Origin: Escherichia coli
GTDB taxonomy: Bacteria > Pseudomonadota > Gammaproteobacteria > Enterobacterales > Enterobacteriaceae
DNA length: 64,000 nt
Strand: one strand, 5' to 3'
Assembly (NCBI RefSeq): GCF_013315695.1
Contig: NZ_CP054353.1
The notes under the pieces are model-generated. The model made no database searches, was not told the origin of the DNA, and was given only the letters and a program-made list of their open reading frames with translations. This document shows positions 1-48,686 of this stretch, in pieces (the first letter of the stretch is position 1; each line of letters begins with the position of its first letter). A program made the position numbers and the translations under genes.

Positions 1-1
1 G

Positions 2-2362
2 GAGAAAGGCAGCGCTACGGGGATACAGCAGAGTAGCCAGGGCGCGTTGGTGGCAACCACCAGGGCGACGCGGGTCACAGGGACACGCGCTGATGGCGTC
101 GCGTTCAGCATCGAGCAGGATGCGGCGAACAATATCCTGCTGGCAAATGGCGGCGTGTTAACCGTGGAGTCAGACACCACTTCCGCCAAAACACAGGTCA
201 ATGCGGGCGGACGGGAGATCGTCAAAACAAAAGCCACTGCGACTGGCACGATGCTTACCGGCGGTGAACAAATCGTCGAGGGTGTGGCGAATGAGACAAC
301 GATTAACGACGGCGGAATACAAACAGTTTCGGCTAACGGTGAGGCAGTAAAAAAAACGATTAATGAAGGCGGTACGCTGACAGTCAACGATAATGGCAAA
401 GCGACAGATATCATCCAGAACAGCGGTGCCGCTCTCCAGACGAGCACGGCTAACGGTATTGAAATCAGCGGTACTCACCAGTACGGCACCTTTTCCATTG
501 CCGGCAATTTAGCGACCAATATGTTGCTGGAAAATGGCGGTAATTTATTGGTATTAGCAGGTACCGAAGCCCGTGACTCCAAGGTTGGCAAGGGTGGTGC
601 AATGCAAAACCTGGGTCAGGACTCCGCCACAAAGGTTAACTCTGGCGGGCAATATACCCTTGGGCGGTCAAAAGATGAGTTTCAGGCTCTGGCCCGGGCA
701 GAAGATCTCCAGGTCGCTGGCGGGACGGCAATCGTCTATGCAGGTACGCTGGCGGATGCATCGGTCAGTGGCGCGACAGGAAGCCTGTCGTTAATGACGC
801 CACGGGATAATGTTACGCCAGTTAAACTCGAAGGGGCGATCCGGATTACCGATAGCGCGACATTAACTATCGGAAATGGCGTCGATACGACGCTTACCGA
901 CCTGACGGCTGCCAGCCGGGGCAGTGTCTGGCTTAACAGCAATAATTCCTGTGCAGGTACCAGCAACTGCGAATATAGAGTAAACAGTTTGCTCCTCAAC
1001 GACGGTGATGTTTATTTATCAGCACAAACAGCAGCGCCTGCCACAACTAACGGTATCTACAATACGCTGACAACCAGTGAACTTTCCGGCAGCGGTAATT
1101 TCTACCTGCATACCAACGTTGCAGGCTCCCGGGGCGATCAACTGGTCGTCAACAACAACGCCACTGGTAATTTTAAAATCTTTGTTCAGGATACCGGCGT
1201 CAGCCCTCAGTCTGACGACGCGATGACGCTGGTGAAAACAGGGGGAGGGGATGCTTCGTTTACGCTGGGTAATACCGGCGGTTTCGTTGATCTTGGGACC
1301 TATGAGTATGTCCTGAAAAGCGACGGCAACAGCAACTGGAACCTGACCAATGATGTCAAACCCAACCCGGACCCCAACCCAAATCCGAAGCCGGATCCGA
1401 AACCAGACCCGACTCCCGATCCAACGCCGACACCCGTCCCGGAGAAACGCATCACGCCTTCTACGGCAGCCGTACTCAATATGGCAGCAACATTACCGTT
1501 GGTCTTTGATGCTGAGCTAAACAGTATTCGCGAGCGGTTGAACATAATGAAAGCGAGTCCACACAACAATAATGTCTGGGGGACGACGTATAACACCCGT
1601 AATAATGTCACCACCGATGCGGGTGCCGGGTTTGAGCAGACGCTGACCGGAATGACGGTGGGGATCGATAGCCGTAATGATATTCCTGAGGGGATTGCGA
1701 CTCTGGGCGCTTTTATGGGTTATTCCCATTCACATATCGGTTTTGATCGTGGAGGACATGGCAGTGTGGGCAGTTATTCTCTGGGGGGCTATGCCAGCTG
1801 GGAACATGAAAGTGGTTTCTATCTGGACGGTATCGTGAAGCTGAACCGCTTTGAAAGTAACGTAGCCGGTAAAATGAGCAGCGGTGGAGCCGCCAACGGC
1901 AGTTATCGCAGCAACGGGCTGGGCGGTCACATTGAAACCGGGATGCGATTTACCGATGGTAACTGGAACCTGACGCCGTATGCATCGTTAACGGGGTTCA
2001 CCGCTGATAACCCCGAATATCATTTATCCAATGGCATGGAATCGAAATCAGTCGATACCCGCAGTATATATCGTGAACTGGGCGCAACGCTGAGTTACAA
2101 CATGCGTCTGGGGAACGGCATGGAAGTTGAGCCGTGGCTGAAGGCGGCTGTGCGCAAAGAATTTGTCGATGATAACCGGGTGAAAGTGAATAATGACGGT
2201 AATTTTGTCAATGATTTGTCGGGCAGACGTGGAATATACCAGGCAGGTATTAAAGCCTCATTCAGCAGTTCGTTAAGCGGGAATCTCGGGGTGGGGTATA
2301 GCCATGGTGCCGGTGTGGAATCCCCGTGGAACGCAGTGGCTGGTGTGAACTGGTCGTTCTGA
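2..2362 (+). CDS. Autotransporter adhesin, C-terminal portion (passenger repeats, Pro/Asp/Asn-rich linker, beta-barrel translocator); 5' end lies outside the window
   Basis: Frame is open from the window edge (no stop between 2 and 47); PNPDPNPNPKPDPKPDPTPDPTPTP linker; C-terminal beta-domain ending ...VNWSF as in type Va autotransporters; position resembles ypjA next to CP4-57 in E. coli K-12. Confidence 0.8.
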   Translation, partial: EKGSATGIQQSSQGALVATTRATRVTGTRADGVAFSIEQDAANNILLANGGVLTVESDTTSAKTQVNAGGREIVKTKATATGTMLTGGEQIVEGVANETTINDGGIQTVSANGEAVKKTINEGGTLTVNDNGKATDIIQNSGAALQTSTANGIEISGTHQYGTFSIAGNLATNMLLENGGNLLVLAGTEARDSKVGKGGAMQNLGQDSATKVNSGGQYTLGRSKDEFQALARAEDLQVAGGTAIVYAGTLADASVSGATGSLSLMTPRDNVTPVKLEGAIRITDSATLTIGNGVDTTLTDLTAASRGSVWLNSNNSCAGTSNCEYRVNSLLLNDGDVYLSAQTAAPATTNGIYNTLTTSELSGSGNFYLHTNVAGSRGDQLVVNNNATGNFKIFVQDTGVSPQSDDAMTLVKTGGGDASFTLGNTGGFVDLGTYEYVLKSDGNSNWNLTNDVKPNPDPNPNPKPDPKPDPTPDPTPTPVPEKRITPSTAAVLNMAATLPLVFDAELNSIRERLNIMKASPHNNNVWGTTYNTRNNVTTDAGAGFEQTLTGMTVGIDSRNDIPEGIATLGAFMGYSHSHIGFDRGGHGSVGSYSLGGYASWEHESGFYLDGIVKLNRFESNVAGKMSSGGAANGSYRSNGLGGHIETGMRFTDGNWNLTPYASLTGFTADNPEYHLSNGMESKSVDTRSIYRELGATLSYNMRLGNGMEVEPWLKAAVRKEFVDDNRVKVNNDGNFVNDLSGRRGIYQAGIKASFSSSLSGNLGVGYSHGAGVESPWNAVAGVNWSF

Positions 2363-9212: not shown

Positions 9213-9285
9213 GGGCTGCCGGTTAACCCCGGCCGTCGCCGCACACCGTATTTTTATTCTTCAGCATGATGAGAAAGAGATAACG

Positions 9286-9858
9286 ATGGAAAGCACAGCC
9301 TTACAGCAGGCCTTTGACACCTGTCAGAATAACAAAGCAGCATGGCTGCAACGCAAAAATGAGCTGGCTGCGGCCGAACAGGAATATCTGCGGCTTCTGT
9401 CAGGAGAAGGCAGAAACGTCAGTCGCCTGGACGAATTACGCAATATTATCGAAGTCAGAAAATGGCAGGTGAATCAGGCCGCCGGTCGTTATATTCGTTC
9501 GCATGAAGCCGTTCAGCACATCAGCATCCGCGACCGGCTGAATGATTTTATGCTGCAGCACGGCACAGCACTGGCGGCCGCACTGGCACCGGAGCTGATG
9601 GGCTACAGTGAGCTGACGGCCATTGCCCGAAACTGTGCCATACAGCGTGCCACAGATGCCCTGCGTGAAGCCCTCCTGTCCTGGCTTGCGAAGGGTGAAA
9701 AAATTAATTATTCCGCACAGGATAGCGACATTTTAACGACCATCGGATTCAGGCCTGACGCGGCTTCGGTGGATGACAGCCGTGAAAAATTCACCCCTGC
9801 GCAGAACATGATTTTTTCGCGTAAAAGTGCGCAACTGGCATCACGTCAGTCTGTGTAA
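9286..9858 (+). CDS. psu: Psu-like polarity-suppression / capsid decoration protein, 190 aa
   Basis: Position after delta and length equal to P4 Psu. Confidence 0.65.
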   Translation: MESTALQQAFDTCQNNKAAWLQRKNELAAAEQEYLRLLSGEGRNVSRLDELRNIIEVRKWQVNQAAGRYIRSHEAVQHISIRDRLNDFMLQHGTALAAALAPELMGYSELTAIARNCAIQRATDALREALLSWLAKGEKINYSAQDSDILTTIGFRPDAASVDDSREKFTPAQNMIFSRKSAQLASRQSV

Positions 9859-10021
9859 AACTCCCCGAAAATCCGCCCGTTTTACTGAAAAAAGCCATGC
9901 ATCGATAAGGTGCATGGCTTTGCATGCGTTTTCCTGCCTCATTTTCTGTAAACCGTGCCATTCCCGGCGCGGTCTGAGCGTGTCAGTACAACTGCATTAA
10001 AACCGCCCCGCAAAGCGGGCG

Positions 10022-10040
10022 GGCGAGGCGGGGAAAGCAC
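10022..10040. other. cos site (cohesive end) of the P4-like element
   Basis: ggcgaggcggggaaagcac matches the P2/P4-family cohesive-end sequence as I recall it; located after psu as in P4. Confidence 0.6.
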
Positions 10041-10074
10041 TGCGCGCAGTATAAGAATTAAATAGGTATGGATT

Positions 10075-12033
10075 TTAAAATCCATCAAGTAGCTGATTGA
10101 TACCATTGCTCTCATCACAATTTATTTGCTCTAACTCAAATAAAGCACTGTCGTACTTTATTTGGGGAGTGTTTTCAAATGACAATAAAGATTCGATTAG
10201 TCTTATTTCTTTATCTTTATTTATGTCTTTAAGTGAGTCTAAAGTTAAATTGAATTTAACTTCGGGTTGTTTTCCTACTTCCATCATGATATTTGACTCC
10301 AACTCTGGATCAGTATTGAAGAATCGATGTGTCTTATGGAAATAACTAGGTTTTCTTGATTTTAAAATACTTAGTATATCCGACTTGATAGTGCTTTCCC
10401 GTGCTATCACAAGCCAATGGTTGGCAACCCCTGTGATGGTGGTAATGATGTGGGAGCCATTTTCACTTAGTTCATTAAAGGCTCTTAAGTCACCCTTGAA
10501 AAAATCATTTAGCAACTCATTTTCTTTATCTTTATCAAAAAGGTAAATTATTGAATTGCCGGCTAATGATATTTCAGCCTTGGTTTTTATAGTATCGCAA
10601 TTAAATTGCGCGGTCTCATTTTTTAATTCTTCGTAAGATGATTTTAAGTCTAAAAGCAAGCATTTTATTATACTTGATCTGAAAGATGAGTAATCAATAT
10701 CAGCACAAAGTGAAAATAAATTTCTGTGACGAATGGATTCAGGGCTGTAATATAGCTTTGTTAATATTTCTTTTTGGCGTTCTTTTGTGTCACGACAGAT
10801 AAACATAGCTGCAAAATATTCCATTAATGATTTGTGTGACCAACGAATAATAGCGCCTTCTTTGACAAATAATGGAACGGTTTCAATTAAGTCCTGAATA
10901 AAAAGAGATGGTGAAGTTGATATTCCGGGAATTTTTGAAATGATATTTTGCAATGTTATTTGCAGATCGTCTTTCGTAAACTCAATTTTACCTCCGTCTT
11001 TCAAACACCAAAAACCTAATCTCCTTAAGACCTGATGGAAGTCAGTGGAGTCTAGCTTAGAAAATTTTTCTCTAACATAACCAAGTTCTTTAGTTAAATC
11101 ATGAGACTCATACAAAGCGTCAAATACTTGGCTATAAAATAACTCTCTTTTTCTTGGTATTATCGGTTTGAATTTATATGCACAAAATAATAATGAAACA
11201 TAAAGAGGTGTGGATAAAAATTCATTTAGATTATGACCATTCTCCAGTCGTAATCCTTTAATTAATTGAGATGAAATAGGGCCACGTCCATCATATCGAC
11301 GTAATAGATCATACGCTTGATTCGTTTCTAATGGGTTGATTTTAAATCTTGAGAAACCATGTAGTTCTGATAAGAAATTATCATGACGAGAAGTTATAAT
11401 TATTTTGCTTTCTGAGAAATTATTAGCAAAGGTACTTAGTAAATTTACGATCTTGGATTTGAGTTGTTGTGGGATTTCATCTATGCCATCGAAAAGATAA
11501 ATAAAAGGGATTTTTTTGAGGCAGTTGTCTGAAATGTCTTCTCCTAAACCAAGTTGATGTTTCACCTGTAGCGCAAAATCATAATCTTTAGCACGTCGTA
11601 ATTCAATGTATATTGGAATGTATTCCTTATTAGCGATGCAATCTAAAGCAATTCTTTTCATTAGGGTGGACTTACCCATTCCTGCTGAGTCAGTGATTAA
11701 TATATGATTGAAATTATCTAATAAATCTGCATTGTCTTTTATTAGGCATGTGTATGGTTTTTTTTCATTATCGTAATAAATGCTCATTGGCTCATAAATA
11801 TCTAGAAGCTCTACTGGAGTATTTTGAAAAGCTAAGGTATTCACAAGGGAGCATTGCCCTTTCACATTTGATAGGAAACGTTCAAGATTTTTATTCAAGA
11901 AGCGTGCTGCATGTACATCTATTAAATAATTACGAACACTACTTTCTATGATAGGTAATATTTTATTCTTAATAACCTCCTTTGCCCATGGAAGGGATGC
12001 AGAGACTAATACATCAAGAGATACTGGTTGCAT
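10075..12033 (-). CDS. NACHT-type STAND NTPase (652 aa), candidate anti-phage protein in the P4 cargo slot
   Basis: Walker A GMGKST and NACHT-type Walker B LFDGIDE; long C-terminal helical region; strongly AT-rich versus flanks; sits between cos/psu and int. Confidence 0.75.
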   Translation of the reverse strand: MQPVSLDVLVSASLPWAKEVIKNKILPIIESSVRNYLIDVHAARFLNKNLERFLSNVKGQCSLVNTLAFQNTPVELLDIYEPMSIYYDNEKKPYTCLIKDNADLLDNFNHILITDSAGMGKSTLMKRIALDCIANKEYIPIYIELRRAKDYDFALQVKHQLGLGEDISDNCLKKIPFIYLFDGIDEIPQQLKSKIVNLLSTFANNFSESKIIITSRHDNFLSELHGFSRFKINPLETNQAYDLLRRYDGRGPISSQLIKGLRLENGHNLNEFLSTPLYVSLLFCAYKFKPIIPRKRELFYSQVFDALYESHDLTKELGYVREKFSKLDSTDFHQVLRRLGFWCLKDGGKIEFTKDDLQITLQNIISKIPGISTSPSLFIQDLIETVPLFVKEGAIIRWSHKSLMEYFAAMFICRDTKERQKEILTKLYYSPESIRHRNLFSLCADIDYSSFRSSIIKCLLLDLKSSYEELKNETAQFNCDTIKTKAEISLAGNSIIYLFDKDKENELLNDFFKGDLRAFNELSENGSHIITTITGVANHWLVIARESTIKSDILSILKSRKPSYFHKTHRFFNTDPELESNIMMEVGKQPEVKFNLTLDSLKDINKDKEIRLIESLLSFENTPQIKYDSALFELEQINCDESNGINQLLDGF

Positions 12034-12036
12034 GAA

Positions 12037-13245
12037 TTATACCTTATTTTCTACGTTTAAATTTTTGACCTTAAGTCCCCACCAGTTCATTAAATCGATT
12101 CTGGTATGTAAATATGTTGAGCGGTTATATGCTCTTCTAACTTCGTTTTTGTCAGAGTGCGCTAAAGCAGCTTCAATGACATCTGGGTTAAAACCTCTTT
12201 CATTCATGGCTGTACTTGCTATTGAACGTAGACCATGAGCAACCAGCTTCCCGCCATAACCAATACGTTTTAAAGCAGCATTAGCAGTTTGGCTATTCAT
12301 TGGCTGTTTTGGGTCATTTCTACTGGGAAAAACATGTTCACGATGAGCACTGATTGGTTTCATTACCTCCAGAATCTCTATTGCCTGAGGTGATAAAGGA
12401 ACAATGTGTTCCCGCTTAGCTTTCATCCGTTCGGCTGGAATAGTCCAGAGCTTTGCGTCAAGATCGATCTCTGCCCAACGAGCACCGGAAGCTTCAGAAG
12501 GGCGCACAAGGGTCAGAAGCTGCCACTCAATTAGACAGCGAGTCGAAACAGAGAGGTTCGACATCACCAAAGAGCGCATGAGTTTTGGTAATTCTTCAGG
12601 TCGTAGCGTTGGCATGTGTTGCTTTTTGGGTTTCTCAAATGCCATACCAATACCAGATGCCGGGTTTGCATCAATCAGGCCAGTGTTGACGGCGTAGATC
12701 ATGATTTCGTTAATACGCTGCACCAGTCGACGTACAGTCTCTAGCGCCCCACGTGCTTTGATTGGCTCAAGGGTTTCAACTAGTGTTCGGGCTTTGATTT
12801 GCTGGACAGGGATCTCCCCGATGACAGGGAATACGTCTTTTTCCAGTGACCGCCATATATCTTTAGCGTAATCGGGTGTAACGCTTTTGCTTTTGAGCTG
12901 GAACCAGTTAGCGGCGACCGTTGAAAAAATACTGTCCAGAGCGATTTGCTGCTGTTCCTCTGCAACTTCGGCCTGAATTTGCGGGTCAATTCCGTTGGCT
13001 AACAAAGCAAGGTAATCCGCTCTTAACCGTCGAGCATCAGCAAGTGAAAGGGCGGGGAAAGCACCAAGCCCCATCATTGTCCGCTGTTTTGTTGCTGGAC
13101 GTTGATAACGGAAACGCCACAACTTCTTACCGTTCGTTTTAACGAGCAGAAAAAGACCATCGCCATCATGTAACGTTAGATCCTTTTCTAACGCTCTAGC
13201 GCGCAGAACTTCTGTGCTGGTCAGGGGGCGTGTCGTTCTTGCCAC
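12037..13245 (-). CDS. int: P4-type tyrosine integrase (402 aa)
   Basis: P4 integrase-like N-terminus (...GLFLLV...G.K.WRFRY) and C-terminal catalytic region (...HGLR...RAYNRS); adjacent to ssrA-derived att core. Confidence 0.9.
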   Translation of the reverse strand: MARTTRPLTSTEVLRARALEKDLTLHDGDGLFLLVKTNGKKLWRFRYQRPATKQRTMMGLGAFPALSLADARRLRADYLALLANGIDPQIQAEVAEEQQQIALDSIFSTVAANWFQLKSKSVTPDYAKDIWRSLEKDVFPVIGEIPVQQIKARTLVETLEPIKARGALETVRRLVQRINEIMIYAVNTGLIDANPASGIGMAFEKPKKQHMPTLRPEELPKLMRSLVMSNLSVSTRCLIEWQLLTLVRPSEASGARWAEIDLDAKLWTIPAERMKAKREHIVPLSPQAIEILEVMKPISAHREHVFPSRNDPKQPMNSQTANAALKRIGYGGKLVAHGLRSIASTAMNERGFNPDVIEAALAHSDKNEVRRAYNRSTYLHTRIDLMNWWGLKVKNLNVENKV

Positions 13246-13429: not shown

Positions 13430-13474
13430 TGGTGGAGCTGGCGGGAGTTGAACCCGCGTCCGAAATTCCTACAT
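13430..13474. repeat. Internal att core: 45-bp copy of the ssrA 3' end (junction between P4-like element and P2-like prophage)
   Basis: tggtggagctggcgggagttgaacccgcgtccgaaattcctacat is identical to 48642-48686. Confidence 0.9.
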
Positions 13475-18100: not shown

Positions 18101-18399
18101 CAAGGGCAGTGCGTATCCATCAATTAAAAATTGCACCTAAGTATTTCAACGCTGTGGTTGCAGGTCAAAAGACGGCTGAACTTCGTAAAGACGATCGTGG
18201 CTATAAAGTTGGTGATGTTCTTTCTCTTTGCGAATGGAAGCATGGCGTATTTACGGGTAGGGAATGGGCCGCTGTTATCTCTCATGTGCTTCCGGTTAAT
18301 GACGTCATGGCAGTTTCAGAACAATGGGTGATGCTATCAATTCGCCCATTAACTCCATTAGAAGCTTTGGGATATGTTATTGCAGGAGGTGCTGTATGA
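18097..18399 (+). CDS. Hypothetical early protein (100 aa)
   Basis: ATG overlapping the previous stop (ATGA), GGAGG upstream. Confidence 0.5.
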
Positions 18400-19253
18400 G
18401 CACCATCCTGAAATGGGCAGGTAATAAAACTGCCATTATGTCCGAACTGAAAAAACATCTTCCTGCTGGCCCGCGACTGGTTGAACCTTTCGCGGGTTCC
18501 TGTGCTGTGATGATGGAGACGGATTACCCCAGCTATCTTGTTGCGGATATTAATCCTGATTTAATCAACCTCTATAAAAAGGTTGCTGCTGATTGTGAAT
18601 CGTTTATATCTCGCGCCAGAGTTTTATTTGAGATCGCAAACAGGGAGGTGGCTTATTACAACATAAGGCAGGAGTTTAATTACTCAACTGAAATTACTGA
18701 TTTCATGAAAGCGGTATATTTCCTGTATCTAAATCGTCACGGTTACCGTGGTTTATGTCGCTATAACAAGAGCGGGCATTTCAACATTCCCTACGGTAAT
18801 TATAAAAATCCGTATTTCCCTGAAAAAGAAATTCGCGCATTTGCAGAAAAAGCCCAGCGAGCAACGTTTATCTGCGCCAGCTTTGATGAAACGCTGGCGA
18901 TGTTGAAAGCGGGGGATGTGGTGTATTGCGATCCGCCGTATGACGGTACGTTTTCCGGCTATCACACTGACGGCTTCACTGAAGATGACCAGTATCACCT
19001 GGCATCTGTTCTTGAACATCGGTCATCAGAAGGACATCCGGTCATTGTTTCTAACAGTGACACATCCCTGATCCGTTCGCTGTATCGCAATTTTACTCAC
19101 CACTACATCAAGGCAAAACGCAGCATCGGTGTGGCAGCTGGCGAGGGTAAATCAGCAACAGAAATCATTGCTGTTTCCGGGCCGCGCTGCTGGGTGGGAT
19201 TTGATTATTCGCGTGGCGTGGATAGTTCTGCCGTGTACGGAGTACGTGCATGA
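18396..19253 (+). CDS. DNA adenine methyltransferase (Dam-like, 285 aa)
   Basis: N-terminal SAM-binding region (LKWAGNK...EPFAGS) and DPPY catalytic motif. Confidence 0.85.
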
Positions 19254-21664
19254 GTCATGCCGATATGAACAACTGCTGCGGCTTTAACGAAGCTGCCGCA
19301 TCGTTCTCATGGAACAGCCCGAAAAAGGCCATTAACCCTTATCTGGACCCGGCGGAAGTTGCGCCGGTTTCTACGCTTTCAAACCTGATCACTCTGTACG
19401 CTGCCGATAACGAGCAGGAACAGCTGCGCCGTGAGGCGCTGAGTGATCAGGTCTGGGAGCGTTATTTCTTTAATGAATCCCGTGATCCTGTCCAGCGCGA
19501 AATGGAGCAGGATAAGCTCATTAGTCGGGCAAAGCTGGCGCATGAGCAGCAGCGTTTTAACCCGGACATGGTCATTCTGGCAGACGTCAGCGCCCAGCCC
19601 TCCCATATCAGCAAGCCGCTGATGCAACGTATTGAATACTTCAGCAGCCTTGGCAGGCCAAAGGCTTATTCCCGCTATTTGCGTGAGACGATTAAGCCAT
19701 GTCTGGAACGGCTGGAGCATGTACGCGACAGTCAGCTATCCACATCTTTTCGCTTTATGGCAAGCCATGAAGGGCTGGACGGCCTGCTGATTCTGCCTGA
19801 AATGAGTCAGGATCAGGTGAAACGCCTGTCCACCCTTGTTGCTGCGCATATGAGCATGTGCCTTGATGCAGCTTGTGGCGATTTGTATGCCACCGATGAC
19901 GTTAAGCCAGAAGAAATCCGCAAGACATGGGAAAAGGTGGCAGCAGAAACCCTGCGACTGGATGTCATACCGCCTGCGTTTGAGCAACTCCGCCGGAAAA
20001 GAAACCGCCGTAAACCCGTGCCATATGAACTCATTCCGGGTTCGCTGGCGCGTATGTTGTGCGCCGATTGGTGGTACCGGAAATTATGGAAGATGCGTTG
20101 CGAATGGCGGGAAGAGCAGTTGCGTGCTGTTTGCCTGGTCAGCAAAAAAGCATCTCCCTATGTCAGCTATGAAGCCGTGATGCATAAACGTGAGCAGCGC
20201 CGTAAGTCGCTGGAGTTTTTCCGTTCTCATGAACTGGTGAACGAAGACGGCGACACGCTGGACATGGAGGATGTGGTAAACGCCAGCAGCAGCAACCCTG
20301 CGCATCGCCGCAATGAGATGATGGCCTGTGTTAAAGGTCTGGAGCTTATCGCGGAAATGCGCGGTGACTGCGCCGTTTTCTACACCATCACCTGTCCGTC
20401 ACGTTTCCATTCCACGCTAAATAACGGCAGGCCCAACCCGACCTGGACAAATACGACGGTAAGACAAAGCAGTGATTATCTGGTCGGCATGTTTGCTGCA
20501 TTTCGTAAGGCGATGCACAAAGCCGGATTGCGCTGGTATGGCGTGCGGGTGGCTGAGCCGCATCATGACGGTACAGTTCACTGGCACCTGTTGTGTTTTA
20601 TGCGCAAAAAAGATCGCCGCACCATTACTGCTTTGTTGCGTAAGTTTGCCATTCGTGAAGACCGCGAGGAGCTGGGTAATAACACGGGACCACGCTTTAA
20701 GTCTGAGCTGATAAACCCGCGCAAAGGTACGCCAACAAGCTACATCGCGAAATACATCAGTAAGAACATTGACGGGCGTGGTCTGGCTGGCGAGATCAGC
20801 AAGGAAACGGGTAAATCCCTGCGTGATAACGCTGAATACGTTAATGCCTGGGCGTCTCTGCATCGTGTTCAGCAATTCCGCTTCTTTGGCATTCCGGGGC
20901 GTCAGGCTTACCGTGAACTGCGATTGCTGGCTGGTCAGGCGGCAAGGCAACAGGGGGACAAAAAAGCAGGTGCGCCGGTACTGGATAACCCGCGCCTTGA
21001 TGCAATCCTGGCTGCTGCTGATGCTGGTTGTTTTGCCACCTACATCATGAAGCAGGGCGGCGTACTGGTTCCCCGCAAATATCACCTCATCAGAACTGCT
21101 TATGAAATCAACGAAGAACCGACCGCATATGGCGATCACGGTATTCGTATTTATGGCATCTGGTCACCCATTGCAGAGGGCAAGATCTGCACTCATGCGG
21201 TGAAGTGGAAAATGGTTCGTAAGGCCGTTGACGTTCAGGAGGCGGCAGCCGACCAGGGCGCTTGCGCCCCTTGGACTCGTGGCAATAACTGTCCCCTTGC
21301 TGAAAATTTGTACCAACAAGGGAAAGACAAATCAGCTGATGGAGATACCAGAACGGATATCACCCGCATGGATGACAAGGAGTTGCACGATTACCTGCAC
21401 AGTATGAGCAAAAAAGAGCGCCGGGAACTGGCAGCAAGGTTACGCCTGGTGAAACCGAAACGGCGTAAAGACTACAAACAGCGAATTACAGATCATCAGC
21501 GACAGCAGCTCGTGTATGAACTGAAGTCCAGGGGATTTGATGGCAGCGAGAAAGAGGTCGATTTACTGCTTCGCGGCGGCAGTATTCCGTCAGGAGCAGG
21601 CCTGCGTATCTTCTATCGGAACCAGCGTTTGCAGGAAGATGATAAGTGGCGAAACCTGTATTAA
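19250..21664 (+). CDS. Replication initiation protein A (rolling-circle nicking endonuclease), 804 aa
   Basis: Size and position of P2/186 gene A at the end of the early operon. Confidence 0.85.
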
Positions 21665-21756
21665 TTACGCGGGTTAACAATTCGTGCTCTTAATAATACC
21701 AGGCATATCAGGCCGATGAACGTAAAAAAACGTTTTACATCAGTAAGATTATTATA

Positions 21757-21776
21757 TACTGTAAATATAAACAGTA
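21757..21776. promoter_or_regulatory. LexA (SOS) box upstream of the tum/dinI-like genes
   Basis: tactgtaaatataaacagta fits TACTGT-N8-ACAGTA; an additional acagta half-site follows. Confidence 0.7.
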
Positions 21777-21816
21777 GTTATTTATACAGTATTTCTTTGG
21801 TGTTATAGGAGGAAAG

Positions 21817-22005
21817 ATGCAGGACTATTTTTTGGAGTCTTTGAAGCTCCAGCGCATTGATTTTTTTCTTAAGCTTGTAGCGGCTAGTGAGTGTAGTGAT
21901 GAAGAGAAGGGGCTGGCTTTGCAGTGGGTTTCTGAACTGACAGATGAACTTATGGCAAAAATCAGAACCCACGAATACAACCGCTCAATGGATGTCATCA
22001 GTTGA
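21817..22005 (+). CDS. Small SOS-controlled protein (62 aa), possible Tum-like antirepressor
   Basis: First ORF downstream of the LexA box, aggagg RBS. Confidence 0.4.
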   Translation: MQDYFLESLKLQRIDFFLKLVAASECSDEEKGLALQWVSELTDELMAKIRTHEYNRSMDVIS

Positions 22006-22015
22006 GGTGACTTTT

Positions 22016-22249
22016 ATGCGCATTGAAATAATGATCGATAAAGAGCAGAAGATTAGCCAGTCTACCCTGGACGCCTTTGAATCCGAGCTTTACCGCAATC
22101 TGCGCCCCCTGTATCCCAAAACGGTAATTCGTATCCGTAAAGGTAGCTCTAACGGTGTGGAACTGACCGGACTGCAACTGGACGAAGAAAGGAAACAAGT
22201 AATGAAAATTATGCAGAAGGTGTGGGAAGACGACAGCTGGCTGCATTAA
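22016..22249 (+). CDS. DinI-family protein (77 aa)
   Basis: MRIEIMIDKE...ELYRNL...VWEDDSW resembles E. coli DinI (MRIEVTIAK...WESADDW). Confidence 0.75.
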   Translation: MRIEIMIDKEQKISQSTLDAFESELYRNLRPLYPKTVIRIRKGSSNGVELTGLQLDEERKQVMKIMQKVWEDDSWLH

Positions 22250-22519: not shown

Positions 22520-22735
22520 ATGTCAAGCATCGCCGCATTTAGCCTGGGTAACCCAGTTGAACGTCTGGCAAGGGTTCTTAAAGAGAACCAGGACAAACTC
22601 AATCTTAGTAAAGATGGTTTTGTGTCCGTAGACTTGTCTAACAAAAGAGCAATGGATGCCATCAAGGCACAGATGGATAAGCTTGAAGGCATCAAAACGA
22701 GCACTGTAAAAGAGAAAACTAATAGAACCAGATAA
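22520..22735 (+). CDS. Hypothetical small protein (71 aa), first gene of a two-gene cargo module
   Basis: Strong RBS (gggggag); stop overlaps the next start (ATAATGG). Confidence 0.5.
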   Translation: MSSIAAFSLGNPVERLARVLKENQDKLNLSKDGFVSVDLSNKRAMDAIKAQMDKLEGIKTSTVKEKTNRTR

Positions 22736-23577
22736 TGGCAACATTACTTTTAGCAGTGATTTTGGTTAGTGGTTTTATTTATGTAAACCTATCACTTTCA
22801 ACAAGATACCGATATAAGCGTTCCAACGGCTGGGACGCTTATTTTTTTGTGGCTGCCTGGGGTATCGTTTTTTTTCTCCTTGGCGGTTTTTTCACCTTTA
22901 TTTTGAACGTCAGCGGAGGGTTTCGTTGGCTGGCTAATGCCTTGAATCTAACACCTGACAGTTTTAACGGCATGTTGTCTTCATCGAAAGACAAACTTCA
23001 AAGAATAAATGAAATCAAACAGATAGCATGGGTTATGATTTCAATTGTCCTCGCTGCGATTTCAGGTTTTGGAAATAAGTTACGCACATCACGTGGAGAT
23101 CGTCGCTGGGATGCCTTAGCTAAAGCTGTGGGTAATAACGCTTTCGAATCATTACTCATGGAAGCGTCCGCAAGACAGTTTCCGATCATAGCAACTCTGT
23201 CGTCTCGCAAAATCTATGTTGGTCTTGTTACTTGTCCGGCGTTAGAAAACGGGCTTTCAGAACACCTTGAACTTCTCCCGATGTTAAGCGGATATAGGGA
23301 TAAAGATGATCTAACGATTAGTATCACGACTAACTATCACCAACATTATCTTGATAGTGGTGTGATAAGTGGAATGTCTCGGCTTAATATCGAAGATTTC
23401 CGTGTGCTCATACCAAAAGATGAGGTTGAAACAATTTCGTTTTTTGATACTGAGACATATAACAAATTTAAAGAAAATGAAGCCAGGGATAGAAAGAACT
23501 GTCGAAAGATTGGTAGTAAAAGTGCATCTTCGCGCAGCAAGCGTGCAGCAGATGCTGAGTCAAATGATCGTGCATGA
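22735..23577 (+). CDS. Hypothetical membrane protein (280 aa: ~3 N-terminal TM helices plus soluble C-terminal domain)
   Basis: Translationally coupled to the 71-aa ORF; hydrophobic N-terminus, charged C-terminus. Confidence 0.6.
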   Translation: MATLLLAVILVSGFIYVNLSLSTRYRYKRSNGWDAYFFVAAWGIVFFLLGGFFTFILNVSGGFRWLANALNLTPDSFNGMLSSSKDKLQRINEIKQIAWVMISIVLAAISGFGNKLRTSRGDRRWDALAKAVGNNAFESLLMEASARQFPIIATLSSRKIYVGLVTCPALENGLSEHLELLPMLSGYRDKDDLTISITTNYHQHYLDSGVISGMSRLNIEDFRVLIPKDEVETISFFDTETYNKFKENEARDRKNCRKIGSKSASSRSKRAADAESNDRA

Positions 23578-23694
23578 CTATGCTGCATGAGATCGCATGA
23601 TCGTTTGAGGATCGTTTTTGCTAAGGCCCGCCAGAACTGGCGGGCTTTTGCGTAGATCATGCACCTGCATGAAAACTACTACATAAAGCGGGCA

Positions 23695-23713
23695 GGCGTG
23701 GCGGGGATACGAG
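23695..23713. other. Putative cos site of the P2/186-like prophage
   Basis: ggcgtggcggggatacgag shares the GGCG(A/T)GGCGGGG core with the P4-like cos at 10022. Confidence 0.5.
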
Positions 23714-23903
23714 CGCGCGTTGGGATGATAATGTCCTTTCGAATGTAAGGCAGAGTATGTTATTTTTACTCTTGGTTGCTTTGTATAGTTCGATAAAATT
23801 ATTATATATTTAGTATGTGATATATTGATGTCGATGGTGACTGGTTGTGGATGAAGCTAAAAACAAAAAGGCATGATGCGATTTATTGAAGGAATGATGA
23901 TTA

Positions 23904-24320
23904 ATGATTGATGTCATTGGTAATAAATACGTTGTTGCTTTAATTTTTCCATTGTTGATGATTCTATGTGGGGCTTTTGTAAAAAAACTTGCCAGATCCT
24001 CTGGTTGGCAAAAGAGTGATTTTTACTTTGGGAATGAGTTGATATTATCGACAATTGGTGCATCATTGTTGAATTTATATGATTTGACTAAAACTGTTCA
24101 AACAGTAACCACGGTTAACCAAGTGGTTAATCAGTACATTGGAACTACTAGCTTTCTTGCCTTCTCTCTTTTTGTATTACTGGGGATCATGTCTTTTCAT
24201 CAAGATTGGGAAGGGCGAACAGGAAATCCAAAAGGTCAAATTTGGGTTTTATGTATTGGGTGTAATTTAGTCGGCATATTATTTTTTGCTTCCTTTGTTT
24301 TGTGGATTAAGGGTGTGTAA
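23904..24320 (+). CDS. Hypothetical small integral membrane protein (138 aa, ~4 TM helices)
   Basis: AT-rich; four hydrophobic segments; immediately followed by the TIR-like gene. Confidence 0.6.
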   Translation: MIDVIGNKYVVALIFPLLMILCGAFVKKLARSSGWQKSDFYFGNELILSTIGASLLNLYDLTKTVQTVTTVNQVVNQYIGTTSFLAFSLFVLLGIMSFHQDWEGRTGNPKGQIWVLCIGCNLVGILFFASFVLWIKGV

Positions 24321-24923
24321 ATGAAAAAAAATACTCTTTATATTATTTCAATTGCATTGGCTGTTGTTGGGTTTCTTATGGCTCTTATTCCACGGCTCCC
24401 ATATTTATTTCAAGGAGTTAATGATGAGATTATCATCTCCGTTATTGGATTATCTTTTGCCTATTCTGGCCTGAGTTTGATTGTGTTAATGAAATTAAGG
24501 GAAAGAAGACTAAAGGCCGTTAAAAAAGGAAAGCAAATATTTCTAATGTATCCCGTACAAGAAAAAGATAAGGCCCGTCAAATAACTTGTAAGCTTAATG
24601 AGTTAGGTTTTGATGTATGGTTTGATGAAAATAACATATTGCCCGGGCAGATTATTGAAAAGCAAATTAATCAGGCTATAGACAATAGCGCTGCGGCTAT
24701 ATTGCTTCTGTCTAATGAAGATATGGAGTCATATATAAGAAAGGAGGTAGAGGGCTTTCTCCGTAAAGCTACGGTAAAAGATGAAAACTATGTTCCTATA
24801 ATTCCTGTGATAATTGGTGATGCTGAATTGCCTGCGATGCTCAAAAACATCAAGTCTGTAAACTATGAGGATGAAAAATTAATTGATAAGCTCAATTTGT
24901 CATTGAAGTCCATTCTTGGTTGA
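24321..24923 (+). CDS. Membrane-anchored TIR-like domain protein (200 aa: 2 TM helices plus TIR-like domain)
   Basis: C-terminal region follows the TIR pattern: KQIFLMY...LNELGFDVWFDENNILPGQII...INQAIDNSAAAILLLSNEDMESYIRKEV...YVPIIPVII. Confidence 0.6.
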   Translation: MKKNTLYIISIALAVVGFLMALIPRLPYLFQGVNDEIIISVIGLSFAYSGLSLIVLMKLRERRLKAVKKGKQIFLMYPVQEKDKARQITCKLNELGFDVWFDENNILPGQIIEKQINQAIDNSAAAILLLSNEDMESYIRKEVEGFLRKATVKDENYVPIIPVIIGDAELPAMLKNIKSVNYEDEKLIDKLNLSLKSILG

Positions 24924-24955
24924 AATAAGGAGTCAGAATATCTGACTCCGTTTTT

Positions 24956-25987
24956 TCAAGTAAGCTGATAACTATCGAATGTTACTATTTCCTCATCTAG
25001 CCATATGTTTATTTCCTGTAATCTTTTTTGCAACGGTAATAACTCATTACGAACAAATACTTTACTAGCCTTCTCCACATCCCCAAACCCCCCAACATTA
25101 TTCGGCATAATCCCCATCATCTGTGGCGGAACGCGATGTGCTGCCATCATGTCATCCCGGCTCACGTTCTTGATATTTAGAAACTCATCCTTCGCCGCAA
25201 CTTCTGACAAAGGGATGATCTGAAGGCCGTCCTTTTTGCCGTTAGGCGAGTACATAAACAGGTTGCGGAAGTTACCCGGACCTTTGGCACTTTTCATTGC
25301 ATTGCGGAGGTTGTTCACGTCCTCCTGGTTCTGCGCAGCATCGGTCATGTACATGATGAAGCCTGCATGACTACCGTTAATGTAATACTTGCGGCGGAAC
25401 AGCGTGGCGGACTCATTGAGCAGGGCGGACGGAATGGCAGAAAGATAGCCGGGCAGGCCGTAGATCTCCTGGTTAATGTCCGGTTCCATCAGATGAAAAA
25501 TGCTGCCTTTCGTGAACTGATATGGCTGCGTGGTCATACCGTATTGCACAAACCAGTAGGTATCCAGGTCTAACCCGCGTCGGGTGTATTTTGCCAGGGC
25601 AGGTTCAAGGGCGATAACTTCACCGAAGCGGTTCGTGCGTTTCTCCAGGTAGGCGTTACCAAATACCAGATAGTCCTGCACAAAACGCGAAAAAGCCTGC
25701 TGGCTGAGCAGCGGGTGAGGGATGTAGGTGCTGGTCAGAATGTTGCACTTTACTGCAATCGGGGAACTATGATGAACGGCAGCGCGGAAGGTGCGCGCCA
25801 GTCCGTCAAAGCTGACGGGCGGCTCATACCAGCGGTCCATCTGTACGCATTCCACATAATCCAGCAGTTCTCGGCGGTCCAGAACAGGAACGGGATCGCC
25901 GAAGCTGAATGCTTCGGCTGTAGTTTGACTTTTAAGCTGGATCTGTTTCGTCGCCGCAGCGCGGTTCTTCTTACTCTTTCCCATCAA
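24956..25987 (-). CDS. Portal protein (P2 Q-like), 343 aa
   Basis: Size, orientation and pairing with the terminase ATPase gene as in P2 Q-P. Confidence 0.9.
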   Translation of the reverse strand: MMGKSKKNRAAATKQIQLKSQTTAEAFSFGDPVPVLDRRELLDYVECVQMDRWYEPPVSFDGLARTFRAAVHHSSPIAVKCNILTSTYIPHPLLSQQAFSRFVQDYLVFGNAYLEKRTNRFGEVIALEPALAKYTRRGLDLDTYWFVQYGMTTQPYQFTKGSIFHLMEPDINQEIYGLPGYLSAIPSALLNESATLFRRKYYINGSHAGFIMYMTDAAQNQEDVNNLRNAMKSAKGPGNFRNLFMYSPNGKKDGLQIIPLSEVAAKDEFLNIKNVSRDDMMAAHRVPPQMMGIMPNNVGGFGDVEKASKVFVRNELLPLQKRLQEINIWLDEEIVTFDSYQLT

Positions 25988-27750
25988 AAAATCTCCACAA
26001 TATTGCTGGTATTGGCGGATTCGCCCTGCAGCGGTTCGTTAAACAGTGCGTGCATCGTTGCCCAGGCCAGATCGGCGTGGCTGGCTTCTTCGCTGCGGCT
26101 GGCTTCATAGGTCGGGCGGTTGCCACTGGCGGTGGTGGCGCGACGGATTGCCATAAAGGACTGCGCTATGTCGGTGTGTCCGGCGTCAAACTCCAGACGG
26201 CGGTGGCTGATAATGTCGTAGGCCTTGAGTACCAGGGCGTTTTTAACGTTGGGGTTGTAGACAAACTCCCGGACGGCAGGAAAAAACGCTTTCACGTTCT
26301 CATAAACCCCGTGACCAACGCCGGTTGAGTCGATACCGATATAGGTCACGTTGTACTGTTCGGTCAGTTTTTTGATGGCGTCAGCCTGGGCGCGGAAGTC
26401 CATTCCGCGCCACTGGTGACGCTCAAGAATGCGGAACTTACCGCCCGGCACGGCTGGCGGCGCCACCACCACGCATCCGGCGCTGTCGCCGTTCTGCGTA
26501 CCTTTCGCCGGGTCATATCCGATCCACACTTCGCGCCAGCCAAACGGGCGCAGGGCCAGTGCATGAAAGTCGGTCCAGACTTCCCAACTGTCCACCATGC
26601 ACGCCTGCAGCTCGCTGAGTGGGAACACAGACGCGAGATCGTCCACGAACTCACACATCAGCAGGTTTTGGTATTCGTCCGGGCTGTACTCCATGCGCAA
26701 CTGGTCGAGGTCGAACAGGTTACAGCCGCCGCGCACCGCATCTTCCACAGTGACTATCTGGCGGTACTGCCCGTCTGCGCACAGCAGGCCGGGGGCCAGA
26801 TTGCTGTGGGACAGGTCGATGTCCACCTTATCGGCTTTGTTGCGCCCTCGGTTGAACAGCGCACCGGACCAGAACGGATAAGCACTGTGTGTCAGGCTGG
26901 ATGGCGTGGAAAAATAGGTTTGTCGCCATTTTTTGTGAATAGCCATACCGGAAGCCACTTTGCGCAGCTCCTGGAATTTCGGTATCCAGAAATATTCATC
27001 CAGATACAGGTTGCCGTGGTAACTCTGGGCCGTGCGGGCATTGGTGCCGAGGAAGTACAGCGTGGCCCCGTTAGGAAGCACCATCGGATCGCCTTTCAGC
27101 TCCACCTCCACTTCTTTGGCGAAGTCGATGATGTACTGCTTAAAGACGTGGGCCTGAGCCTTGCTGGCGGAAAGGAAAATCTGGTTACGCCCGGTTAGCA
27201 GGGCGTCAATCAGGGCTTCACGGGCAAAATAGAAGGTCGCGCCGATCTGGCGTGACTTCAGCAGGTTGCGGATGCGGTTGGTTTTTCCGGCTTCCCACCA
27301 GTGGCGCTGGTAGTTGAACATGGAGGAATGGAAAATTTCTTCCAGCTTCTCAATCTGTTCATCGGTGAAAACGTTCTTTTCCGGCTGACGGCGCGGGCCT
27401 TTGTTGCGGTTGGCGACGTTAGGGTTTAAGTCGGCTTCGTTGCCGCCATTGTTAAACTTGCCGATCCGCGCATGGCGCTCCGACTGGCGCGCCAGCAGGT
27501 CAATCTCTTTGAAATCTTTCCCTTCTTTGTGCTCCTTCATAATGAGCTGGCAGTAGCGTGCGGCGGTGGTGAGCTGCATCTGATCCAGCGGCCCATAGTC
27601 ACCCCACTTGTCGCGTTTTTTCCAGCTGTGAACGGTTGCAACTTTCTCGCCCAGCATTTCAGCAATGCGGGCTACGCGGTATCCCTGAAAGTACAGCAGC
27701 ATGGCCTGCCGACGGGGATCGAGATCTGCGGGTGTCAGTGTGGTGTTCAT
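25984..27750 (-). CDS. Terminase large (ATPase) subunit (P2 P-like), 588 aa
   Basis: Size and position match P2 gene P; overlaps the portal gene start. Confidence 0.9.
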   Translation of the reverse strand: MNTTLTPADLDPRRQAMLLYFQGYRVARIAEMLGEKVATVHSWKKRDKWGDYGPLDQMQLTTAARYCQLIMKEHKEGKDFKEIDLLARQSERHARIGKFNNGGNEADLNPNVANRNKGPRRQPEKNVFTDEQIEKLEEIFHSSMFNYQRHWWEAGKTNRIRNLLKSRQIGATFYFAREALIDALLTGRNQIFLSASKAQAHVFKQYIIDFAKEVEVELKGDPMVLPNGATLYFLGTNARTAQSYHGNLYLDEYFWIPKFQELRKVASGMAIHKKWRQTYFSTPSSLTHSAYPFWSGALFNRGRNKADKVDIDLSHSNLAPGLLCADGQYRQIVTVEDAVRGGCNLFDLDQLRMEYSPDEYQNLLMCEFVDDLASVFPLSELQACMVDSWEVWTDFHALALRPFGWREVWIGYDPAKGTQNGDSAGCVVVAPPAVPGGKFRILERHQWRGMDFRAQADAIKKLTEQYNVTYIGIDSTGVGHGVYENVKAFFPAVREFVYNPNVKNALVLKAYDIISHRRLEFDAGHTDIAQSFMAIRRATTASGNRPTYEASRSEEASHADLAWATMHALFNEPLQGESANTSNIVEIF

Positions 27751-29804: not shown

Positions 29805-30455
29805 ATGAGCCTGAGTCCCGCACGGCAGCATCGCCTGCGCGTTCAGGCTGAACAGGCCGCCCGCGAGGGCGGTAGCGTTCGCCACGCGTCGGGCTATGAC
29901 CTGATGCTGCTGCAACTGGCGGAAGACCGCCGCCGTCTCAAGGGCGTTCAGTCCACGGTCAAAAAAGCGGAAATCAAGGTGGAGCTGCTGCCGAAGTACG
30001 CCGCCTGGGCGGAGGGTGTCCTGGCTGCCGGAGGCGCTCAACAGGATGACGTGCTGATGTACGTGATGCTGTGGCGCATTGATGCCGGAGATTATGCCGG
30101 GGCGCTGGATATCGGGCGTCACGCCCTGCGTCATGGCTGGGTGATGCCGTTAGGTAACCGCAACGTGCAGACCGTGCTGGCAGAGGAAATGGCAGATGCA
30201 GCCCAGAGCGCAATGCTTGCCGCCACCGGCTTTGATGCCGATCTGTTGCTGCAGACCCTGGAGCTGACAGACGGTATGGATATGCCGGACCAGTCACGGG
30301 CGCGTCTGCATAAAGCGATTGGCGCTGTCCTGAGTGAAAGAAATCCGGCGTCTGCCCTTAATCATCTCAACCATGCGTTACAGCTCGATCCCCGCTGTGG
30401 CGTGAAAAAAGACAAACAGCAGCTGGAGCGCAGACTGCGCAATGACAGCCGCTGA
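29805..30455 (+). CDS. Terminase small (endonuclease) subunit (P2 M-like), 216 aa
   Basis: Position after the capsid gene. Confidence 0.8.
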   Translation: MSLSPARQHRLRVQAEQAAREGGSVRHASGYDLMLLQLAEDRRRLKGVQSTVKKAEIKVELLPKYAAWAEGVLAAGGAQQDDVLMYVMLWRIDAGDYAGALDIGRHALRHGWVMPLGNRNVQTVLAEEMADAAQSAMLAATGFDADLLLQTLELTDGMDMPDQSRARLHKAIGAVLSERNPASALNHLNHALQLDPRCGVKKDKQQLERRLRNDSR

Positions 30456-35598: not shown

Positions 35599-36196
35599 TC
35601 TGCTGCCACCGGGTTCAACTTCACTGGAGCGCCGACTGGCGCAAACCTGTAGCGGGATTTCTGATTTGCAGGTGCCGCTGCGTGACTTGTGGAATCCGGC
35701 TACCTGTCCGGTCAGCTTCCTGCCTTATCTCGCCTGGGCGTTCTCTGTGGATCGCTGGGACGAGGGCTGGACAGAAAGCGTCAAACGCCAGGTAGTGAAG
35801 GATGCTTTTTATATTCATCAGCATAAAGGAACCACCAGTGCCGTACGGCGAGTGGTGGAACCGTTCGGATTCCTGATCCGCATTATTGAGTGGTGGCAGA
35901 CCGGAGAAACACCGGGCACGTTTCGCCTGGATATCGGCGTGCAGGACCAGGGCATCACTGAAGATACCTATCTGGAACTTGAGCGACTGATAAGCGATGC
36001 CAAACCATGTAGCCGCCACATGATCGGCATGTCCATCAATCTGCAGACCAGCGGCCCGCATTGGGTGGGAGCCGCCAGCTATCTTGGCGAAGAAATCACG
36101 ATCTATCCGTATATCAACGAAACGATTATTTCCGGTGGCACCGCGCATGAAGGCGGGGCGGTCCATGTTATTGACACAATGAGAGTGAATCCATGA
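35591..36196 (+). CDS. Baseplate protein I (201 aa)
   Basis: Position after J. Confidence 0.8.
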   Translation: MNSLLPPGSTSLERRLAQTCSGISDLQVPLRDLWNPATCPVSFLPYLAWAFSVDRWDEGWTESVKRQVVKDAFYIHQHKGTTSAVRRVVEPFGFLIRIIEWWQTGETPGTFRLDIGVQDQGITEDTYLELERLISDAKPCSRHMIGMSINLQTSGPHWVGAASYLGEEITIYPYINETIISGGTAHEGGAVHVIDTMRVNP

Positions 36197-48641: not shown

Positions 48642-48686
48642 TGGTGGAGCTGGCGGGAGTTGAACCCGCGTCCGAAATTCCTACAT
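48642..48686. repeat. attR core: 3' end of ssrA, identical to 13430-13474
   Basis: 45-bp exact direct repeat. Confidence 0.9.

Follow-up and report, generated by a model that had tools for sequence, protein, structure and literature searches.

The locus

The window (the whole 64-kb stretch of Escherichia coli DNA that was analysed) carries a P4-like satellite and, adjacent to it, a prophage of the P2 family (Table 1). The prophage spans 13430-48686, is integrated at ssrA, and is bounded by 45-bp exact direct repeats, one a copy of the ssrA 3' end and the other lying within it. Its excised genome is predicted to measure 35,212 bp, against 35,203 bp for Salmonella phage SEN8. Starting from the gpA replication endonuclease, the prophage runs through a LexA-box-like site (CTGTAAATATAAACAG), a 62-aa gene, DinI, and genes for a 71-aa and a 280-aa protein to the 19-mer that concerns us here. 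Beyond it follow genes for a 138-aa membrane protein and a TM-TIR protein, and then, on the opposite strand, the portal and large terminase genes.

We aligned the window with 34 genes annotated in the closest complete genome, and all are full length and free of stops. Among them are the integrase, repressor, gpA, portal, both terminase subunits, scaffold, capsid, head-completion, lysis, and tail-shaft genes; the tested head, terminase, lysis, tail-shaft, and replication genes are 82-100% identical to those of the annotated relative. The element thus carries its own gpM/gpP-type terminase with both genes intact, and PGAP names the gpM homologue “terminase endonuclease subunit.” The tail-fibre cassette, on the other hand, looks damaged. 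A stop at 37314 ends gene H after 373 aa, where relatives have 502-513 aa, and the tail-fibre-assembly homologues inside an invertible segment (37229-39141) are broken by stops. Were this segment flipped, H would be joined to an intact reading frame of 150 aa and would reach roughly 500 aa.

The satellite follows the P4 gene order, with primase, Psu, and integrase confirmed by Pfam. Its psu gene lies 164 nt upstream of the satellite cos, a spacing as in P4, and the 151 bp corresponding to the island described below are identical to P4 at 147 of 151 positions, the P4 homology ending about 7 bp past the 19-mer. The satellite cos is of the P2/P4 type, unlike that of the adjacent prophage, with which it agrees at 14/19 positions in the 19-mer and 40/55 in the core.

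Table 1. Features of the satellite and the prophage (window coordinates; offsets such as -123 are counted from the 19-mer)
Feature	Coordinates	Strand	Basis or remark
Alpha primase (satellite)	3034-5367	-	Pfam
psu (satellite)	9286-9858	+	PF07455
Satellite cos 19-mer GGCGAGGCGGGGAAAGCAC	10022..10040	+	Comparison site; P2/P4 type
NACHT/STAND cargo gene (satellite)	10075-12033	-	
Integrase (satellite)	12037-13245	-	Pfam
Left attachment repeat, copy of ssrA 3' end	13430..13474	+	45-bp exact direct repeat
Backbone upstream of right slot (gpA, LexA-box-like site, 62-aa gene, DinI)	19250..22249	+	
gpA replication endonuclease	19250-21664	+	Pfam Phage_GPA
LexA-box-like site	21759-21774		Sequence match
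62-aa gene	21817-22005	+	PGAP annotation of near-identical relative
DinI	22016-22249	+	Pfam DinI
Right-end cargo slot content	22520..23577	+	71-aa + 280-aa genes
71-aa gene	22520-22735	+	phrog_9843 or phrog_3630 pair match
280-aa gene, predicted membrane segments	22735-23577	+	phrog_9843 or phrog_3630 pair match
Conserved cos island (151 bp)	23570..23720	+	Column conservation, BLAST span, 13-sequence stack
Three GCAT motifs at -123, -110, -100	23572-75, 23585-88, 23595-98 (23572..23598)	+	Candidate terminase recognition repeats (cosB-like)
GC-rich hairpin then TTTT	23623..23649	+	RNA fold -23.7 kcal/mol, z = -4.9
Fourth GCAT motif at -28	23667..23670	+	Near left edge (-29) of 55-bp core
cosN-equivalent 19-mer (putative) GGCGTGGCGGGGATACGAG	23695..23713	+	SEN8 identity; nicks by analogy to P2 and 186
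Left-end cargo slot content	23904..24923	+	138-aa + TM-TIR genes
138-aa membrane protein gene	23904-24320	+	PHROG match
200-aa TM-TIR gene	24321-24923	+	TIR_2 PF13676, E = 3.6e-17
Bidirectional terminator-like hairpin, TIR gene/convergent portal gene	24929..24949	.	Terminator scan, both strands
Portal gene (gpQ homologue)	24956-25987	-	Pfam Phage_portal
Large terminase gene (gpP homologue)	25984-27750	-	Terminase_5, Terminase_6N, Terminase_6C
Terminase small/endonuclease subunit (gpM homologue)	29805..30455	+	phrog_74, 5e-88; intact
Right attachment repeat, within ssrA 3' end	48642..48686	+	45-bp exact direct repeat
ssrA (tmRNA gene)	48642-49004	-	Contains right repeat

The 19-mer and its conserved island

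An earlier sequence-only reading of this DNA took 23695-23713 for the prophage cos and noted that it shares a GGCG(A/T)GGCGGGG core with the satellite cos at 10022-10040. The sharing is confirmed at both positions: the prophage site reads GGCGTGGCGGGGATACGAG (also given as ggcgtggcggggatacgag), the satellite site reads GGCGAGGCGGGGAAAGCAC, and these are the only two places in the window matched by GGCGWGGCGGGG. The 19-mer has the GC-rich 19-nt core form (GGCG(A/T)GGCGGGG...) of P2-family cos sites. With up to one mismatch allowed, the 12-mer gives 2 hits in the window where 0.71 would be expected, and two or more turn up in 16 of 100 shuffles; this count alone is not significant, so the case for cos rests on homology.

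That homology is close. The 19-mer is identical at 19/19 positions to the “putative cos site” of SEN8 (KT630647.2, bases 1..19), whose genome announcement gives the same cos sequence (PMC5427200), and it is contained in the 59-bp “putative cos site, homologous to the cos of P2 phage” of Escherichia phage Cartapus. Both are isolated phages, and both cos annotations are homology-based. Identity is 18/19 with Smp131 (PMC3931495), 15/19 with phage 186 (NC_001317), whose cos starts GGCGTGGCGGGG, and 14/19 with P2 and P4; the part most divergent from P2 is the right half (ATACGAG vs AAAGCAC). In P2, the 19-nt 5' cohesive ends are GGCGAGGCGGGGAAAGCAC (Padmanabhan 1974 and Ziermann & Calendar 1990, as cited in PMC3931495); the same sequence is annotated as cosL/cosR in NC_001895 and also stands at the start of the P4 record.

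Gene context points the same way. The site lies between the A (replication-gene) end of the genome and the divergently read Q and P genes, and in SEN8 (Felsduovirus), RE-2010, and Cartapus, which share the 19-mer, the cos lies between gpA/DinI and portal just as in the window. Their 55-bp core agrees with ours at 52/55 positions and their island is 89-92% identical. When IMG/VR was scanned for the exact 19-mer, at least 120 loci were found. Among the matches listed, its orientation is uniform (120/120), and the flanks, where they fall within the fetched DNA, hold gpA/DinI upstream and/or portal/terminase (Q/P) downstream on the opposite strand.

The 19-mer is part of a larger conserved block with sharp limits. 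In 110 distinct IMG/VR sequences, among the matches listed, column conservation exceeds 0.9 over most of -125 to +25 and drops to about 0.35, the random level, at -125 and +26. The drop at both edges defines an island at window 23570-23720, made up of 125 bp on the gpA side, the 19-mer, and 7 bp on the portal side (CGCGCG plus one base); the flanking DNA on either side is non-homologous among relatives. The island occurs in 1276 of 5426 complete E. coli genomes (BLAST match at query 1671-1820, i.e., window 23570-23719), and prophages of other E. coli share it at 100% identity. Among phage records, 98 were matched by a 200-bp query spanning the site.

We also considered conservation of the island as coding sequence and rejected it. 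In the closest genomes PGAP places no gene there, the boundaries are abrupt, and conservation tracks motifs and a hairpin stem-loop pattern. The “hypothetical protein” calls over the island in some records, and the start of a P-loop NTPase inside it in one locus (L138), look like over-annotation.

Within the island, the layout is that of functional cos sites, as seen when it is stacked on the circularised cos junctions of P2, P4, and 186. GCAT motifs stand at -123, -110, -100, and -28, as they do in P4, 186, and all Fels-2-type islands, and within 1 bp of their places in P2 (-122, -110, -100, and -28), although the islands are only 61-69% identical overall to P2, P4, and 186. Among the IMG/VR matches listed, the three distal motifs are kept in 105-108 of 112 distinct sequences and the one at -28 in 112/112. 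We infer that these motifs are terminase contacts.

A core of about 55 bp has been described as common to P2-family cos regions (Ziermann & Calendar 1990, as cited in PMC3931495 and PMC5694545); we set it at -29..+25 by our own alignment rather than by the coordinates of those papers. So defined, the prophage core agrees with P2 at 40/55, P4 at 41/55, and 186 at 42/55 positions, and diverges more than P2 does from P4 (52/55) or from 186 (48/55). The flank blocks TGCAT.AAAAC, AAAG.GGGC, and GCGCG are nonetheless all kept. From the GCAT motifs through the AAAGCGGGC flank and the GGCG(A/T)GGCGGGG core to the (T/C)GCGCG beyond it, the registers are base-exact across P2, P4, 186, and this island.

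The claim that 23695-23713 is the prophage cos is thus borne out by identity with SEN8, by a position between gpA/DinI and portal, and by the geometry of the P2, P4, and 186 sites; all the sequence tests we applied support the site as the cos of a P2-family prophage.

One further element of the island deserves mention. A GC-rich hairpin followed by TTTT has conserved stems and a variable loop (110 sequences, among the matches listed). It was not reported by the consensus terminator scan, and is probably an intrinsic terminator that stops rightward transcripts leaving the 280-aa gene, as judged from its fold and conservation pattern.

Variable genes on both sides of cos

The island separates two slots of variable genes. 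The right pair (71-aa and 280-aa genes) occurs in 51/5426 E. coli genomes and the left pair (138-aa and TM-TIR genes) in 2/5426, and both are truly variable cargo. The full hotspot is common to two complete genomes, 1002W03 and 98-3133, of which 1002W03 differs from the window in its satellite and tail fibres. Across E. coli, the identical right pair is found with five left-slot states: the 138-aa and TM-TIR pair of the window, an AAA ATPase with an HNH endonuclease, a single protein with either a PIN domain or DUF262, or nothing at all. In all five, homology ends 6-7 bp past the 19-mer.

The 71-aa and 280-aa proteins match phrog_9843 and phrog_3630, and the 138-aa and TM-TIR proteins have full-length matches to phrog_25392 and phrog_24215; all of these families are of unknown function. 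The 71-aa, 280-aa, and 138-aa proteins gave no Pfam or PADLOC match. The TM-TIR protein has weak matches to PADLOC TIR effectors, no named PADLOC system was matched by the TIR pair at this locus, and a tblastn search with the TIR protein against 50,697 phage records returned no match. Given the TIR domain and the hotspot location, an anti-phage role for the pair is plausible. The terminator-like hairpin between the TIR gene and the portal gene may be set beside terminator tQ, which follows gene Q in P2 (NC_001895).

Inserts on both sides of cos are the common state of this lineage and no special property of our locus. We surveyed 74 IMG/VR loci, among the matches listed, in which both slots were measurable, counting a slot as filled when its insert exceeded 400 bp. 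Both slots were filled in 41/74, the portal-side slot only in 27/74, the gpA-side slot only in 2/74, and neither in 4/74. Clustering of the slot contents, in the same listed matches, gave 31 right types and 64 left types in 69 distinct combinations; with so many combinations among 74 loci, the slots assort almost independently across the island. The portal-side slot sets the lineage apart from P2-type loci: among the matches listed, it was filled in 85/91 (93%) Fels-2-type loci vs 9/95 (9%) P2-type loci (Fisher p ~1e-34), and in the other 86/95 P2-type loci it was empty (~181 bp).

Comparison with isolated phages shows the same pattern with other genes. SEN8 and Cartapus carry variable genes on both sides of cos, and RE-2010 has an annotated gene (AIPR) on the portal side only. 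The cargo itself differs from ours: in SEN8 the right slot holds a 246-aa hypothetical protein and the left slot a 332-aa protein with an HNH protein, and the left cargo is an AIPR protein in RE-2010 and a DUF4145 protein in Cartapus.

P2 resembles the window in its 19-nt GC-rich core, the flanking AAGCGGGC and GCGCG, GCAT motifs at about -123, -110, -100, and -28, a cos between A-side genes and Q/P, and homologous terminase genes. It differs in the core (14/19), the region (40/55), and the island (61% identity), its portal gene lies 187 bp past cos, and its cargo (tin, old) is at the right end only. In 186, the right-end SOS operon consists of a LexA-controlled promoter, the DinI-like tum, the accessory orf97, and cos, and orf97 blocks 186 infection when expressed from a plasmid. 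The window layout (LexA-box-like site, DinI, 71-aa and 280-aa genes, cos) parallels this, but in 186 the portal follows directly after cos, there is no left cargo, and island identity is only 69%.

A cos-proximal gpA-gpQ hotspot of anti-phage systems in P2-like phages was described by Rousset et al. 2022 (PMC9122126), who also reported a cos-adjacent hotspot in P4-like satellites and a validated TIR-plus-TM system at the gpA-gpQ hotspot of P2-like phage AC1. A 2026 preprint confirms the gpA-portal hotspot, and a cosL-Q insertion hotspot in P2-like phages goes back to Dodd & Egan 1996 and Nakayama 1999 (as cited in PMC5694545). Our locus is like that of Rousset et al. in its highly variable genes round cos, TIR and transmembrane proteins included, and prophages that are otherwise syntenic differ in the genes they carry between gpA and gpQ. 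They treat gpA-gpQ as one hotspot, whereas here a fixed 151-bp island splits it into two slots.

P2-family cos, cos-adjacent accessory genes, and the hotspot are already known biology, so our finding adds an instance and not a principle; the only increment is to show the hotspot as two slots that assort independently round a fixed island. For annotation, the site fixes the genome ends of this prophage. It is also of help in delimiting defence-gene cassettes: the left slot begins 7 bp past the 19-mer, and the right one ends at -125.

With variable modules on both sides and the break in homology just past the 19-mer, a cut at cos would leave each end with one module. At the right end, the 71-aa and 280-aa genes would then lie within ~1.2 kb of the terminus; at the left end, the 138-aa and TM-TIR genes would lie 210-1229 bp from it, with the portal gene next in line. 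The sequence-only reading had placed one cargo pair at each end of the linear genome, with the 4-TM and TM-TIR genes beside portal, and this arrangement is supported by the cos placement and gene context. Its wider claim of accessory genes at both termini also holds, each pair being variable while the island is found in 1276/5426 genomes.

Packaging and the alternatives

How might such a site work? After excision and replication, if the prophage is inducible, the terminase (gpM and gpP homologues) would recognise the 151-bp island; its most likely points of contact are the phased GCAT motifs (-123, -110, -100, and -28) together with the conserved AAAGCGGGCA and CGCGCG flanks. Staggered nicks, predicted by analogy with P2 and 186 to fall 5' of 23695 on the top strand and after 23713 on the bottom strand, would leave 19-nt 5' cohesive ends. 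In this scheme all but ~7 bp of the recognition sequence is on the gpA side, so foreign DNA could abut the cut on the portal side, and on the other side it would be tolerated just beyond -125. Two separate cargo slots would result from this layout, and the packaged linear genome would carry the 138-aa and TM-TIR genes at its left end beside portal and the 71-aa and 280-aa genes at its right. The cos of lambda (cosN/cosB) is alike in outline, with a nicking site, a one-sided terminase-recognition region, and 5' cohesive ends, but its sequence is unrelated, its ends are 12 nt, and its terminase belongs to another family. We sought a statement on packaging direction or minimal cos size in open papers and found none. 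Overall, we hold it highly probable that 23695-23713 is the cosN equivalent of the ~35.2-kb Fels-2/SEN8-type P2-family prophage at ssrA, and that it is used in the manner proposed.

The alternative that survives best is that the site is a true cos by descent in a prophage that is defective, so that no packaged genome with cargo at both ends exists. The premature stop in gene H and the fragmented tail-fibre-assembly homologues favour it, and with them infectious particles may not form. In E. coli O157:H16 98-3133, a sister prophage retains cos and both modules with a truncated portal gene and no head genes, and the presence of the site is no proof of activity. Yet in our prophage the head, terminase, lysis, tail-shaft, and replication genes tested are all full length with no stops, and the island is unchanged from that of prophages of other E. 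coli. Cos cleavage and DNA packaging would survive tail-fibre defects, so that packaging may be intact even if infectivity is lost, and the flipped segment would in any case restore a near-normal length of H. We think a mere relic unlikely.

Alternatively, the cos may be true and its cut offset, or its overhang length, different from the P2 model, which would leave cargo at both ends unchanged. The 19-mer differs from P2 at 5/19 positions and diverges most in its right half, which leaves room for this. In the literature on the ...ATACGAG cos variant, Fels-2 cohesive ends, and PhageTerm, we found homology-based statements only and no experimental end-mapping. The base-exact registers described above are the best available evidence that the nicks would fall as in P2 and 186, and they make a shifted cut very unlikely.

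Finally, the notion that the GC-rich 12-mer is a chance likeness to the satellite cos and the real packaging signal lies elsewhere is in keeping with the shuffled counts, but is effectively refuted by homology (19/19 identity to a published cos), by the limits of an island shared by 98 phage records and 1276 E. coli genomes and set between gpA and Q in the IMG/VR matches listed, and by four GCAT motifs at offsets common to the P2, P4, and 186 cos regions.

Returning to cos as the packaging site of this prophage, its mismatch with the type carried by the adjacent satellite could bear on helper range, a relation that is here a correlation. Known cross-packaging pairs have closer cores (P2-P4 52/55, P2-186 48/55, and P4-186 47/55). 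Among the IMG/VR matches listed for each exact 19-mer, satellites with Psu encoded upstream of the site make up 15/120 P2-type vs 0/120 Fels-2-type loci (Fisher p = 4e-5), and no satellite with a Fels-2-type cos was seen among the 120 Fels-2-type loci. Two low-identity E. coli matches, checked as candidate satellites with this cos, proved to be P2-like prophages instead. One might suggest that the Fels-2/SEN8-type cos is a specificity that P4-like satellites do not share, with which the prophage resists the piracy of its neighbour at packaging, but we regard this as doubtful. In a linked reading, the portal side of this cos type may need only ~7 bp; if true, this would explain why the left slot is filled so much more often than in P2-type loci (93% vs 9%).

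Cos types, the portal-side slot and the right-end cargo

The slot between cos and the portal gene Q is filled in 85 of the 91 phages that have a Fels-2-type cos among the IMG/VR matches listed (loci L017-L136, which carry the exact 19-mer). For phages with a P2-type cos, it is filled in only 9/95, again among the matches listed (L141-L260), and in the P2 type the cos is followed by approximately 181 bp and then Q. On the gpA side of the prophage cos in the window, a LexA-box-like site precedes a 62-aa gene and a DinI gene, after which comes the right-end cargo (the 71-aa and 280-aa genes); this layout resembles that of phage 186, where the SOS-controlled p95-tum-orf97 operon lies before cos.

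A P4-like satellite (~2400-13245) directly adjoins the P2-family prophage at ssrA. The two neighbours differ in cos type: P2/P4 in the satellite, Fels-2/SEN8 in the prophage. The 19-mers agree at 14 of 19 positions and the core around the cut at 40 of 55, which is a lower identity than that between P2 and P4, P2 and 186, or P4 and 186. Among the IMG/VR matches listed, satellites make up 15 of the 120 loci with the P2-type 19-mer, compared with none of the 120 Fels-2-type loci. The satellite carries its own cos-adjacent gene, which begins about 35 bp past its 19-mer and whose product has a SNaCT5 domain at the C-terminus. Strain 1002W03 has another gene at this position, encoded on the opposite strand.

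Features of the prophage, the satellite and their surroundings (window coordinates)
Feature	Position	Strand	Remark
Autotransporter adhesin ORF	47-2362	+	AIDA/pertactin type, 771 aa; left edge of window, beyond satellite
Satellite alpha	3034-5367		
Satellite psu	9286-9858		
Satellite cos	10022-10040		
Satellite cargo gene, cos-adjacent	10075-12033	minus	652-aa NACHT/STAND NTPase
Satellite int	12037-13245		
Dam methylase gene	18396-19250		phage's own
LexA-box-like site	21759-21774		CTGTAAATATAAACAG, inside TACTGTAAATATAAACAGTA; upstream of 21817-22249
GATC pair in prophage cos island	23599-23602, 23610-23613		-96 and -85 from the 19-mer; conserved in lineage
Tail-fibre cassette	36193-39141		
Gene H	36193-37314		
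Invertible segment	37229-39141		
Invertase	39197-39760		
Locus between D/ogr genes and attR	46586-48346	minus	ParA-like ATPase and 186-aa protein
ParA-like ATPase	47270-48346	minus	358 aa; AAA_31/CbiA

The cos island: GATC sites, annotation and relatives

The conserved 151-bp island around the prophage 19-mer contains four GATC sites, against approximately 0.5 expected. The two that are conserved in this lineage are kept in 103 and 105 of 112 sequences and are absent from P2, P4 and 186. A link between methylation and packaging at this island can be entertained purely as speculation.

Several public records (locus L138, 3517-5361, and phage records H58-H63) place protein-coding genes over the island, examples being a P-loop NTPase that starts within it and genes labelled “hypothetical protein”; these ORFs have probably either been extended too far or been called spuriously. 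Besides 1002W03, the only complete genome with both cargo modules is E. coli O157:H16 str. 98-3133 (NZ_CP051001.1). Its prophage, clearly defective through a deletion from the portal gene as far as the tail fibres, still has cos and the cargo.

Tail fibres and a possible further variable locus

The tail-fibre cassette of the prophage looks damaged. The gene H product is 373 aa long, as opposed to 502-513 aa in relatives, with its stop immediately past the inversion crossover site, and both tail-fibre-assembly homologues are interrupted by stops. With the invertible segment flipped, H would continue into an uninterrupted minus-strand frame of 150 aa (38677-39129).

What seems to be a further variable locus of the prophage, lying between attR and the D/ogr genes, holds the ParA-like ATPase and the 186-aa protein, which has no Pfam match. 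In the O157:H16 relative a BRCT-domain gene takes their place.
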